64,000 nt of DNA from Nitrospirota bacterium. Its GTDB lineage: Bacteria; Nitrospirota; UBA9217. The notes below the pieces were generated by a model. That model worked only from the letters and a program-made list of their open reading frames with translations, was not told where the DNA came from and did no database searches. Location of the stretch: positions 352,001 through 416,000 of the forward strand of contig CAWBNQ010000005.1 in NCBI GenBank assembly GCA_963790205.1, written 5' to 3'. This document shows, in pieces, positions 1,190-6,519 of this stretch (positions within the stretch are counted from its first letter, which is position 1; the number at the start of each line of letters is the position of its first letter). A program made the translations under genes and the position numbers.

Positions 1190-1220
1190 AGAGCCTATAG
1201 GGTCACGTCTTGTTATTTGA
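1190..1220. repeat. Left inverted repeat flanking the RAYT gene (REP-like)
   Basis: agagcctatagggtcacgtcttgttatttga is the reverse complement of 2110-2140 with 3 mismatches; it contains the RAYT stop codon. Confidence 0.85.
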
Positions 1221-2075
1221 TATTTGTTCTTGAGCACTCACCAACCTGCTGACGGTTGCATAGTTCAATCTCAGATGATCCGCGAGCTCTCTCTGAAGAT
1301 ACCCATGGCGTTCTACCGCATCGGCTATGCGCCGGTCCCGCTTGCGCTTATTCCGTAAAATGTCTTCCGAAAACAGCTTTTCCAGGGCCGGCCTCTTCAG
1401 GTATTTTTGACTCCGGGTGATCTCGGACACCTCTTTATGCTTCCTGAGATGATCTATAAAGCGGTCTGCAAAATCTTCTTCTCCGAGTATCGTCTGGCCC
1501 CGCACGTCGGTCCAGACGGATTGTTTGCCGATCCCCCATTTGACGAACTGCCGGTATTCTTGCTCCGCCTTGCCCCGCTTCCCGCTGAATTGGCCCAATA
1601 CCCAGTCTGTGGTGAGGCACGGATGGGGCTTTGCTCTGCCCGCCGTAGCCAGGTAGCTGGACCAGCGATACTCCTCCGGCATCTCAACCATCTTGGCCCG
1701 CACAGGATTCAGGACCACATACCGGCAAACCTCAAGGAGATGGCTGTCCTTCTGGATGAGGATGGCTTTGTATCGTCCCTGGAACAGGTAACCGGTCCTG
1801 CCATGCCAATTGTTAAAGAGCTGCGTGTAGACGCCGTTCAGCTGTCTCATGCCGATGGATAGATTGCCGTCCGGGGTCTCGATGAGGAGGTGGTAATGGT
1901 TGGTCATGAGACAATAAGCGTGGCAGATCCAGTTGTAGCGTTTGCCGGCATGCTGGAGGGTATTGAGGAAGTTCAAGCGGTCCTGCTCGTCCTTGAAGAC
2001 GGGCTTCTTTTCGTTCCCGCGGGAGGTGACGTGGTAAACAGCACCGGGATACTCTATGCGAAGGGGACGGGCCAT
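1203..2075 (-). CDS. REP-associated tyrosine (Y1/HUH) transposase with C-terminal HTH
   Basis: MARPLRIEYPGAVYHVTSRGN, HUH motif in MTNHYHLL, LFQGRYKA, YVVLNPVRA, YRWSS; C-terminal HTH QRELADHLRLNYATVSR. Confidence 0.92.
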   Translation of the reverse strand: MARPLRIEYPGAVYHVTSRGNEKKPVFKDEQDRLNFLNTLQHAGKRYNWICHAYCLMTNHYHLLIETPDGNLSIGMRQLNGVYTQLFNNWHGRTGYLFQGRYKAILIQKDSHLLEVCRYVVLNPVRAKMVEMPEEYRWSSYLATAGRAKPHPCLTTDWVLGQFSGKRGKAEQEYRQFVKWGIGKQSVWTDVRGQTILGEEDFADRFIDHLRKHKEVSEITRSQKYLKRPALEKLFSEDILRNKRKRDRRIADAVERHGYLQRELADHLRLNYATVSRLVSAQEQISNNKT

Positions 2076-2156: not shown

Positions 2157-2261
2157 AAGAGTATTGTTCGCTAGGTATCAACGTTATATATGGGTAGAGC
2201 ATGAGGTTAGATTTCCCCAATAAAGCTATAGAGAAAATCTTTATCAAGACTACCCAAAATA

Positions 2262-2320
2262 GAAACCTCCTGCTAAGAATTAGTTTATGACGGAACTAAA
2301 TTCAAGAACAGGAGGTTCCT
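2262..2320 (+). promoter_or_regulatory. Hairpin sequestering the IS110 transposase RBS
   Basis: aacctcctg pairs with caggaggtt (contains the AGGAGG RBS); inner arm gaattagttt / gaactaaattc. Confidence 0.55.
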
Positions 2321-3628
2321 ATGAACTATGTAAATGATATCAGACTTGAGCAGTTTCTTCAACTGAAGAAAGAGATTCGCGGCTCTGAGAAGCATTTGAT
2401 CGTCGGCATTGACGCGGCCAAGGAGAAGCACAATGCTTTTTTTGGTACGGCACGCGGAAAAACGCTGGTTAAGAATCTGGTCTTTGACAACACGCTTGAA
2501 GGCTTTCAAAAGCTGCTCGCATACGTCGAGCGAATCAAAGTTCAATTCAGCCTGACCACGGTGGTCTTCGGCATCGAGCCGACGGGTAACTATCACAAGC
2601 CCCTGGCTGAACATCTGATCAAGTGTGGGCACCTGGTCGTTCTCGTGGGAGGCGTCGCGGTCAAGAACAACCGGCAGCTTTTGGACGGCCGCTGGGACAA
2701 GCATGACGTCAAGGACGCGGCAAATGTCGCCGATCTCATAGCCCAGGGGAAGTGCCTGTTCTACGAGTATCCCCTGATGACGCTGCGGAACGTGCGTATC
2801 ATTATCGCACTCAAACGGCGCTTGAAGCGAAGGGAACACGGCATGAGCGTATGCATTCGCAATCACATCATAGCGCAGTATTTCCCGGAACTGGACCAAC
2901 ACTACGGCCCCTCGGAAGTCTTGGCGGTAGTGAGGGAATGCCTCGACCCCTCGGAGATTGCCGGCATGGAATACGATACCTTCTGCCGCACCGTCGCGCC
3001 GGGCAAGATGACGCTGGCAAAGGGCCGTCGGGTGGAAACGATCTGGAGGGCCGCGGTTGATTCCATCGGCTGCACGATGGGAGAAGCGGCATCTTTCGAA
3101 GCTCAAGTCATGGTGGACAGCCTGAAGCAGATCAGGCAGACCATCAAGTCGGTGGAAGAAAAGCTCGAAGATGCCTGCATGGAATTTCCGGAGTACACCT
3201 ACTTGCTGAGCATTCCGGGGTTCGGACCGGATGTCTCCTCAAAGGTGCTAGGGGCCATCGGCAATCCGCACCGGTTTACGAACGCAAAGCAGGTATTGAA
3301 AATGGCGGGACTCGACCTGTGCGCGGACCGAAGCGGCAAGAAGTCCAACAGCGCGATACCGGTCATCTCCAAGCAAGGCAAGGCCGATCTCCGCTACGGG
3401 CTCTATCAGGCGGCATTTATCGCCTCGCTCAAGAACAAGGACTTCATCGCCTACTTTACGAACAAGCTCAAGGGCCGGGCGAAGGAGAAAGGCATTGTCA
3501 CAAAGATGCGGGTCAAGCTGGCCGCGAAGCTCCTGATTATCGCCTGGACGCTGATGAAGAAGAAAGAATGCTTTGATCCAAAATACCTCAAACAGGTGGA
3601 TCAGGACGCGCAAAAAAAGGCGGCATGA
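2321..3628 (+). CDS. IS110-family recombinase/transposase (DEDD RuvC-like plus Tnp20 domain)
   Basis: IVGIDAAK, FGIEPTGNY and KHDVKDA give the DEDD residues; LLSIPGFG, DRSGK (catalytic Ser region), ISKQGKADLRYGLY. Confidence 0.95.
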   Translation: MNYVNDIRLEQFLQLKKEIRGSEKHLIVGIDAAKEKHNAFFGTARGKTLVKNLVFDNTLEGFQKLLAYVERIKVQFSLTTVVFGIEPTGNYHKPLAEHLIKCGHLVVLVGGVAVKNNRQLLDGRWDKHDVKDAANVADLIAQGKCLFYEYPLMTLRNVRIIIALKRRLKRREHGMSVCIRNHIIAQYFPELDQHYGPSEVLAVVRECLDPSEIAGMEYDTFCRTVAPGKMTLAKGRRVETIWRAAVDSIGCTMGEAASFEAQVMVDSLKQIRQTIKSVEEKLEDACMEFPEYTYLLSIPGFGPDVSSKVLGAIGNPHRFTNAKQVLKMAGLDLCADRSGKKSNSAIPVISKQGKADLRYGLYQAAFIASLKNKDFIAYFTNKLKGRAKEKGIVTKMRVKLAAKLLIIAWTLMKKKECFDPKYLKQVDQDAQKKAA

Positions 3629-3652
3629 TCCGTGAATCATAAAAAAACGATT

Positions 3653-3833
3653 TCGGCGAGAGAGCCCGGGACACAACGTTGAGGCTAGACCTCGCTGGGG
3701 ACAATATAGGGCCTCTCGTTTGAACGATAGAATCTGGATAAGGTATTCTGGGCGGCCAAACTGAAAGCGCGGCACGCCGAATAGGTCATAACGATTAGAG
3801 TTATCGTTCGTCTGGATGCGAGAGCCTCGCCGA
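3653..3833 (+). ncRNA. Putative bridge/seek RNA of the IS110 element
   Basis: Closing stem tcggcgag/ctcgccga. Arm 1 (3661-3716) has an internal loop carrying caacgtt and ggggaca, which match the left flank and the reverse complement of the right flank. Arm 2 (3722-3809) has stems gaacgatag/ttatcgttc and an internal loop. Confidence 0.7.
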
Positions 3834-4081
3834 TAAAAGCGCTGACGGCAGGAATGCCGAAAAGAGAACTGCGTCCTCAGTTGATGCTGAAAATTACCCT
3901 ATTGAAACTTATGCAAAATTAAGAAGCTCTTGACAGAAGCAATATAGTATGTCCCCTATGTTCTTATTACGGCCTTCCAATAGTAATAATATTTAAGCTG
4001 TTCTCCGAGCCACTCGATTTTGACCATAATGGTCGCTTTTTTAGCCCGAATGGTGGTAGTAGAAAGGAAAGGCCCTCCCCC

Positions 4082-5100: not shown

Positions 5101-6519
5101 TGTCAACCCAAAGTTAAAATGTCCTATTCTTACCAAAGCAAAAATGTCCGGTTTTATGATGTTGCCTGAATCTCTGTTCTTGCTTTGACCATTGCCCTTG
5201 CTGGGGACTTCCAAGGATGTGATGCAGACGGCTTCCATGATCTTAGGGGTTTTGATTTCTCGGCCGACTTCTTTCCCTGTATGGGTCGTGCGATGATTTC
5301 TTGATACTTCAGACTCTGGCCGTTATGGATTATGCGCATGGTTCCGTCGGTTCTCTTTTCCACCGTCACCTTCTTAGCTCGGATATTGCTCTTGATCTGG
5401 TAAAGCTTCTTGTTGTGGGCGATCGTAAAGTCGTTCCGTAATGCTCGGTCGGTCTTGATCGAGAGAATCGTGTCAAGCGCCCTCTTATTCGCGACGGGTC
5501 GATGAAAGTCAGCTTTCTGTGCCGCTTCCTTGGCGTACTTCCTGTTGAACTCGGGGAGATAGCCATCCAGGAACGTGTTGCCTTCCCCTCTATTCGTCAC
5601 CCCGGCCAGCCGCATCTCGTTGACGACCCGATCCTGAAAGGTTCCGAACAGCCGCTCGATGCGTCCTTTGGCCTGGGGGGAATAAGCATGGATGACCTCG
5701 ACGCCAAGCTCTGCCAGGCTCTTCTCGAAATGGCTCATCGGTCGAATGTCGTTTAGCTCCTCTTCGATGCTCTGCTTTGCCGTGGCCTTGTACGTTGAGT
5801 GCCTGTCCAGATAGACGCTCTGGGGCAGCCCGTAGAGCCTGATATAACGCTTGAAACCATCCATGGCCGGCAGTGTTCCCTCATACTCATAAAAACGGGC
5901 ATGCACGGTGCCGGTGGCATCATCCACGTAACCCATGAGAACACACCAGGGGCCGCGGCCCTCGAACCAGTCGTGATGGGACCCGTCCATCTGGATCATC
6001 TCACCCCGGTGGGCCTTTCGTTCGCGCCACTGACGGTGTGGTCTCTTCTTGCGACTCTTGTAGGGGATATGCTCCTCTTGAAACCATCCCCGGAGCGTCT
6101 CGTCGCTGACCTTGATCTTGTGAAACGTTACAAGCTTCTCGCTGGCATGGGTGGGACCGAATTTCTTGTATATGTCCCGGCAGAGCGTGACGGCCTTGTC
6201 CTTTATCTTGTCGCCAATCCGATTATGCGACCTCTTCCCTCGGGACTTGTGGCAAATGCCGGCCTCTCCCTCCAATCGGACGCTTCTGGCAATTCTTCTT
6301 ACCTGCCGATCCGTTAATCCGAGTATTTTTGCTGCCTGATCCTGAGTTATCGCTTTTTCTATCGCCTGCCGAATAACGTGAAGCCGGTTCACTTCCTTTT
6401 GACTCATTATGATCTTGTCCTCTTCCGCCATCTTGCCCTCCCGGTACGGTTGGGCATTGTAGCTTAGAATAGGACATTTTAACTTTGGCGAAATAGGACA
6501 TTATCACTTTGGGAGGACA
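5101..6519 (-). mobile_element. IS1202-family (ISNCY) insertion sequence, 1419 bp, TGT...ACA ends, 16-bp target duplication
   Basis: Direct repeat ccacaacagtgatccc at 5085-5100 and 6520-6535; each end has two ~19-bp caaagttaaaatgtcctatt-like sites in inverted orientation. Confidence 0.92.
5154..6431 (-). CDS. ISNCY/IS1202-type DDE transposase
   Basis: N-terminal HTH; GEMIQMDGSHHDW, YVDDAT, YLDRHS, AYSPQAKGRIERLFGTFQDR. Confidence 0.95.
   Translation of the reverse strand: MAEEDKIIMSQKEVNRLHVIRQAIEKAITQDQAAKILGLTDRQVRRIARSVRLEGEAGICHKSRGKRSHNRIGDKIKDKAVTLCRDIYKKFGPTHASEKLVTFHKIKVSDETLRGWFQEEHIPYKSRKKRPHRQWRERKAHRGEMIQMDGSHHDWFEGRGPWCVLMGYVDDATGTVHARFYEYEGTLPAMDGFKRYIRLYGLPQSVYLDRHSTYKATAKQSIEEELNDIRPMSHFEKSLAELGVEVIHAYSPQAKGRIERLFGTFQDRVVNEMRLAGVTNRGEGNTFLDGYLPEFNRKYAKEAAQKADFHRPVANKRALDTILSIKTDRALRNDFTIAHNKKLYQIKSNIRAKKVTVEKRTDGTMRIIHNGQSLKYQEIIARPIQGKKSAEKSKPLRSWKPSASHPWKSPARAMVKARTEIQATS

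Follow-up and report, generated by a model that had tools for sequence, protein, structure and literature searches.

An IS110 insertion sequence with a predicted right-end bridge RNA in a Nitrospirota genome, and a recurring 23-bp scar at one internal GT

The described systems that most resemble the element reported here are IS621 and ISCro4 (Durrant 2024, PMC11208160; Hiraizumi 2024, PMC11208158; PDB 8wt6 and 9t56). As far as the cited sections describe them, these combine DEDD and Ser catalytic residues with a 2-nt core, a left-then-right guide order, a 9-nt left guide, a split right donor guide, handshake bases at position 7, ATA/TAT positions of a short sub-terminal inverted repeat (sTIR) and a promoter at the circle junction. 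The same features occur in an IS110 element from a Nitrospirota bacterium, located in a 64,000-nucleotide stretch of DNA (the window) of contig CAWBNQ010000005.1, and the guide layout of its RNA matches the IS621 template (supplementary file 7, PMC11208160, the part of that report used here). It differs from IS621 and ISCro4 in carrying its RNA in the right end rather than the left, in its GT core, and in an RNA closing helix that encloses both arms without a separate 5′ stem-loop. Right-end RNA is shared with the IS1111 group (ISEc11, ISKpn4, ISPa11, IS4321/IS5075), and IS4321/IS5075, judging from the title of their report, also target terminal repeats of another mobile element; an sTIR of 7-17 bp, a protein of 330-350 aa and the reversed order of guides, all typical of that group, are absent here. 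By text description, the element is also like the IS110-type 'green' group with a downstream non-coding region (PMC11187229, Fig. 1b), which has a short or no sTIR, a 3′ non-coding region and a long transposase.

Two further comparisons are relevant, as far as the cited parts of these papers go. ISPpu9 (PMC12288879, PMC8450116) has a structured 5′ leader that inhibits translation, resembling a hairpin that we predict over the ribosome-binding site, and work on half-match recognition and partial circles (10.64898/2026.08.31.748434, 10.64898/2026.08.14.744561) describes alternative end sites and recurring internal endpoints, resembling the scar described below. The same parts of the ISPpu9 and half-match/partial-circle papers report circles; a fixed scar left in the chromosome at a duplicated right-donor arm is not described there. 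At the level of titles and abstract openings, the literature contained no paper on the clade of the window element. A preprint (10.64898/2026.10.21.760802) gives in its cited part predicted guides for 32,190 bridge RNAs, and the clade may already be within such large sets.

We conclude with high confidence that the window holds an intact 1,768-bp IS110 insertion sequence at a GT in a REP-associated tyrosine transposase (RAYT)-type end, that the right end of this element carries a predicted bridge RNA of the IS621 type with loops covarying with target and donor, and that RNA-guided recombination through a circle is its likely way of moving. The boundaries, the core, the guide-flank covariation, the empty sites and the intact catalytic residues are directly supported; RNA-guided movement is likely because the bridge-RNA loops covary with both target and donor.

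The element and its recombinase

The element spans 2185-3952 on the plus strand, as do all features below unless stated. Its ends were fixed by aligning the window copy, which is single in the genome, with three identical copies of a sister element (95% aa identity) in the same genome. The left end (2185-2320, 136 nt) is conserved in all parsed relatives and includes a right-donor arm (2185-2189), the −10 box of the predicted circle-junction promoter (2185-2190) and the TAT of the short sTIR (2187-2189). The right-end terminus (3930-3950) carries the −35 box TTGACA (3930-3935), the sTIR ATA (3942-3944) and the left-donor arm (3944-3950). A core GT flanks each side (2183-2184 and 3951-3952); the left copy is supported by empty-site scans and guide layout and would be target-derived by the IS621 model. 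The initial annotation saw no sub-terminal inverted repeats, which holds for repeats of 7-17 bp, the longest perfect end repeat being 5 bp, but fails for a 3-bp ATA/TAT repeat found as TAT in 21/21 left ends and as ATA in 11/26 right ends. ATA at −9 to −7 with TAT at +3 to +5 is described as the short sTIR of the IS110 group.

One relative (L183, G183:C135:4140-4241) is a mini-element of about 100 bp, in which 73 nt from the start of the left end meet the final 27 nt of the right end, sitting between GT cores in the usual target. The window element itself lies in a mobile-element cluster, with an ISNCY-family transposase (profile match) at 5154-6431 on the minus strand, 1.2 kb to its right.

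The gene at 2321-3628 encodes a 435-aa IS110 recombinase (NF033542, 150 bits against a cut-off of 140; PF01548 and PF02371), with a RuvC-like DEDD domain and a Tnp domain containing the catalytic Ser, in agreement with the long recombinase first annotated. In an alignment to 8wt6, D31, E86, D129, D132 and S338 align with IS621 D11, E60, D102, D105 and S241, numbered as in the cited part of Hiraizumi 2024 (PMC11208158). Similarity to IS621 is local only (E 1.6e-17), and the window protein is about 105 aa longer. An AlphaFold model built without an alignment gave a pLDDT of 46 and was set aside. Between the window and sister recombinase genes, 75 codon differences are synonymous and 23 non-synonymous. 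This purifying selection, with the covariation and empty sites reported below, sustains the initial reading of an intact programmable IS110 system with a right-end RNA. The protein family is large (5,346 proteins at E <=1e-20 among 8,000 scored), with named relatives labelled Nitrospirota, Desulfobacterota and others. Among named plasmid records no protein was near the recombinase; the best had below 30% identity, the top full-length match by BLAST ranking being the ISBth13 family (~28%).

Upstream, a predicted hairpin (2259-2322) hides the ribosome-binding site through pairing of 2264-2272 with 2309-2317 (z −5.8). Six of its pairs are kept in 24-25 of 26 relatives, with zero compensatory change; by analogy with the ISPpu9 leader, as the cited part of PMC12288879 describes it, the hairpin may dampen translation. 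An internal promoter search of the element yielded none above chance.

The predicted bridge RNA and its guides

The predicted bridge RNA (3653-3833, ~181 nt) consists of a target arm and a donor arm within a closing helix (3653-3657/3829-3833). Pairs were taken from RNAalifold on a 29-sequence alignment, in which the consensus fold comprises 38 pairs with 98.6% of cells paired; 14 of the 38 changed on both sides, far above slid controls. Folded alone, the window RNA was no better than its shuffles (z −0.37), so support for the structure comes from the alignment. An agag/ctct stem drawn in the initial annotation shows zero compensatory changes, and up to 5 of the 29 sequences break it; ctctc (3714-3718) pairs instead with a 3′ gagag, with two covarying pairs. 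A covariance model matched the window once, at 3645-3836, and Rfam gave zero matches for the RNA. In one RNA run, contigs of relatives extended over 3650-3786, possibly representing DNA. A match of 3702-3709 to the right end at 3940-3947 was without covariation and was dismissed as chance.

Two relatives have unusual RNAs. In L072, a second, stand-alone target-binding arm with different guides (1430-1544, 32 bits) lies just upstream of the full bridge RNA and is possibly a spare or older guide. In L012, a 27%-identical, multi-copy IS110 has a right-end RNA that matches the covariance model weakly (1294-1465, minus strand); the element ends on a Shine-Dalgarno-like sequence before host genes and may target ribosome-binding sites.

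The left target guide (3671-3679) comprises 7 nt plus the core GT and matches 6/9 at the window site, the right target guide (3696-3702) pairs with 3951-3956, and both covary with their targets. Next to the latter lies the target-loop handshake guide (3703-3704), whose first base pairs with donor T3950. Every string and coordinate first quoted is present: 3674-3680 equals 2179-2185, 3697-3703 is the reverse complement of 3950-3956, 3653-3660 is complementary to 3826-3833, and TAT stands at 2185-2187 and 3948-3950. The 7-nt matches on both sides are real, but their seventh bases belong to the element and not to the target, T2185 being the first left-end base and T3950 the donor handshake base.

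Covariation was measured across 87 loci and one genome copy, of which 73 had at least 45% identity; 54 of these had parsable target loops, representing 27 guide types, and the remaining 19, partial or divergent, escaped parsing. Left guides matched their own flanks at 4.89 of 7 positions against 2.93+/-0.28 after shuffling (21 types, 40 sites), and right guides at 3.30 of 4 against 1.59+/-0.24 (26 types, 47 sites). On either side 0/100,000 shuffles reached the observed match, although the relatives are kin and such counts overstate significance and are upper bounds. With one unit per target class, 443/100,000 shuffles did so on the left (6 units) and 0 on the right (9 units). In the sister element, a one-base guide change (A to T) follows the flanks at 2 of 3 sites, and among relatives the target has changed to at least eight other classes, giving at least nine in all. 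The fit is poor on the left side of L083 and L062, and L003 fits in a shifted register. The guide and flank matches are not chance, because guides and flanks change together across relatives; tracking of the flanks by the loops, one of the checks that the initial annotation proposed, is thereby supported.

In the donor arm, position 3744 of the left donor guide (3738-3746) was concordant with donor position 3948 in 29/29 element types (14 T-T, 15 G-G), T3744 covarying with T3948. The right donor guide is discontinuous, as in the IS621 template (3781-3782 and 3788-3792, within 3781-3794), and reads GT-TATAT; it is followed by the donor-loop handshake guide (3793-3794), in which G3793 pairs with target C2182. 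In 22 of 27 types this base forms a pair with position 7 of the target (mean 11.5 and maximum 21 after shuffling), the handshake rule given in the cited part of Hiraizumi 2024 (PMC11208158). Of the five misses, three reflect a shift of the register by one base within a single subclade. The donor equals that of IS621 at 11/14 positions and varies little, so the evidence for donor covariation comes from a single guide position and a single core variant. In that variant element, L069, the left junction core is GA (near 1366) and the right junction core GT, and both the left target guide and the right donor guide of its RNA (2861-3040) read GA. This one element fits top-strand cleavage after the core, with the target core on the left and the donor core on the right.

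Joining the ends in the GT register would rebuild a predicted TTGACA-17-TATATA promoter at the circle junction, known as a consensus match; 19 of the 20 junction types keep the 17-bp spacing. Neither the genome nor loci L001-L255 contained the circle junction. Of 24 listed sequencing runs, 20 had only small shares, and assembled contigs of four runs contained no junction spanning the element. Viral contigs gave 105 matches to the 16-nt junction pattern, 6 of them with an upstream TTGAC and none running into the left end.

Empty sites and RAYT-type targets

A metagenome scan for the two flanks, with a gap of any length allowed between them, returned 58 loci, comprising 21 distinct sites without a gap (GT core), 35 with one unrelated sequence and 2 others; the gap of 5 that a TAT core would give occurred in none. 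Across 64 family genomes, the GT-form empty site occurred 81 times in 31 genomes, against 4 for a reversed control, and the TAT form once, in the window genome, with 0/63 relatives carrying it. G061, a genome that has about 20 insertions, lacks the TAT-type site; of the 22 GT-type matches inspected in it, 16 show by eye the upstream boxes of filled sites. The short-pattern count there is at control level (80 vs 78), so only inspected loci count. The target of these insertions is a degenerate, dispersed repeat of ~130-150 bp with several short conserved boxes and many copies (G061:C3, ~537000-784000; L088-L107), cassette-array-like in appearance.

The left part of the window target (2163-2182; left target proper 2176-2182) is the end of an MPRQARLD-type RAYT-like element, orphan here, and its sequence runs on into GT-CCCC at the 21 empty sites; the right part (3953-3963; right target 3953-3957) is the rest of the RAYT-type end. 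A RAYT tblastn match lies within 300 bp of 13 of the 21 empty sites. At L369, two inverted site copies bracket a single 331-aa gene, which scores 70 bits with the RAYT model, below the cut-off of 80; L370 and L375 are similar, and 7 of 10 fetched regions are orphan ends without such a gene. On the basis of the RAYT matches near empty sites and the inverted pair around the L369 gene, a RAYT-like element supplies the target, through its inverted end and its scattered remnants. Readings as an integron attC, a dif site or a promoter, tried with consensus patterns, were set aside: no complementary upstream box was seen, and the empty sites flank RAYT-like genes as inverted ends. Titles and abstract openings in the literature contained no report of RAYT ends as IS110 targets.

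In the window, the orphan end stands upstream of a different RAYT gene (1203-2075, minus strand; NF047646, 83 bits against a cut-off of 80), at a distance of 90-110 bp; the gene is a neighbor outside the IS110 element. It has 5 more full copies in the genome at 87-99%, which is unusual, RAYTs being described as single-copy, and its upstream end has an 18-bp tandem duplication at ~2126-2156. RAYT-type ends elsewhere (L369-L378, L236, L241) are often followed by short tandem stutters of their terminal 8-10 bases.

Core, group placement and the 23-bp scar

The shared core is GT, not the TAT of the initial annotation. A TAT (or AT) core with the target caacgt-TAT-gtcccc and a circle junction without GT is very improbable, even though both 7-nt matches include the extra base and one exact site of that form exists in the genome. 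This site (G000:C6:42625; 0.005 expected), the single copy found of what had been proposed as the pre-insertion sequence, is a target with 5 extra bases at the core and is best read as a target plus a 5-bp footprint. Against a TAT core, its form is absent from the 58 metagenome matches and the 63 relatives, many relatives terminate in GGAT and not GTAT, and the base after GT varies in the left guide but is invariant in the DNA. The donor loop has GT-TAT, and without GT there is no −10 box at 17 bp. The junction first proposed, caatatag-TAT-atatgg, is not supported. The GT register, in turn, also explains the donor arm, with its T3744/3948 pairing, GT-TATAT guide and handshake base. As for group, an IS1111-group element with decayed sub-terminal repeats is unlikely, though the window element has one IS1111 trait: the longer non-coding region, with the RNA, lies downstream of the gene (324 vs 136 nt). 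No 7-17 bp repeat was found, long sTIRs being absent as in the IS110 group, and the 435-aa protein exceeds the 330-350 aa of IS1111 transposases and falls in the IS110-subgroup range of up to 395-455 aa (cited part of PMC11187229). The bottom-strand-pairing guide stands first (3671-3679 before 3696-3702), the IS110 order in the same source, donor and scaffold resemble IS621, and ISBth13 is among the IS110-type names in the cited portion of the Siddiquee table. Right-end RNA is unlike the usual left-end RNA of the IS110 group, but some IS110-type elements without sTIR carry a 3′ non-coding region (cited part of Siddiquee 2024, PMC11187229), and the combination once called atypical is therefore a published exception. 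The element otherwise has the features of a bridge recombinase system, namely a repeated 2-nt core, an empty site with a single core, a covarying target loop, and a donor loop with handshake.

Remnants of the element gave a further observation. At 2206-2212, an internal GT is followed by a near copy of the right-donor arm, and six exact scars break at this point, each consisting of the left end's first 21 nt between two GTs, with the left target before them and the right target after. These 23-bp scars occupy 6 loci in 5 genomes and three target classes. They came from a left-end pattern search (71 matches in 19/301 genomes; 30 fetched, 29 parsed) that gave 19 complete left ends, one truncated where its contig stops, L183, one other remnant, one 2-nt-longer variant and the 6 scars. 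A second scar search recovered five of the six and none new, and viral contigs gave 0 matches to the scar pattern. At the scar in the window genome (G000 C3:423325), the left target matches the window RNA guide perfectly over 11 nt. Elsewhere in that genome (G000:C6:46362), a left-end remnant stops at the G of the same internal GT and continues into unrelated sequence, with no right target. At title and abstract-start level, the literature held no report of a fixed scar.

The 23-bp scar likely records the element being cut out, judging from these sequences. We lean toward a mechanism in which the clade's second right-donor arm, 21 nt inside the left end, is where the recombinase would excise by half-match recognition and rejoin both chromosome strands, leaving a fixed scar. 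Excision via a half site is the simplest mechanism because for IS621 in vitro it is enough that the donor arm be recognised (10.64898/2026.08.31.748434), and partial circles found in nature have recurring internal endpoints (10.64898/2026.08.14.744561), as the cited parts of both preprints report. That a genuine bridge-RNA insertion sequence left these remnants through host deletion at 2-bp microhomology, or that they reflect mis-assembly, is a weaker though still tenable explanation: the scars are known from assemblies alone, the search pattern detects only remnants of at least 22 nt, and the complete element without its first 23 nt that a re-inserted short circle should leave was absent from the 30 loci, one degenerate fragment aside. 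Such processes fit poorly with 6 of 9 true remnants, spread over those genomes and target classes, breaking at one GT (2206-2207), the only GTTA[TG]AT among the 66 GT in the element, and with all six rejoining exactly to the right target; for mis-assembly, a k-mer chimera is impossible from a 2 bp overlap. If excision by the recombinase at the second arm is correct, the scar would make natural cut-outs countable and would give a handle on cut-out versus copy-out in a right-end, naturally reprogrammed system riding on RAYT ends.

The life cycle that we propose would start with the right and left ends joining at GT into a circle, which would build TTGACA-17-TATATA. One transcript would span the left end, the gene and the RNA; the hairpin would damp translation, and the RNA would be processed out of the transcript. 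The target loop would pair with the bottom-strand left target and the top-strand right target, and the donor loop with the circle junction. After top-strand exchange, the handshake bases would pair crosswise, and insertion would add one GT. Excision may sometimes use the second right-donor arm, producing the scar.

The window element thus provides a fully decoded, predicted bridge-RNA system far from the few characterised ones (<30% protein identity). Its relatives form a natural panel of reprogrammed guides, with target, donor and handshake pairing conserved despite the RNA being at the other end, and RAYT element ends join the list of repeats exploited by IS110 elements. Tool builders gain one candidate orthologue to add to thousands of others. 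Its mechanism was in essence already known; what is new here is the recurring scar at one internal GT. Work from 2025-2026 is divided over whether IS110 elements leave the donor site, post-excision junctions being detected in one paper (PMC13626964) and the donor site kept in others (10.1101/2025.10.25.684509, 10.64898/2026.08.31.748434), according to their cited parts. If made by the recombinase, the scar would bear on this choice between cut-out and copy-out and would be a readable record of excision in a family whose precise excision is otherwise invisible in genomes.
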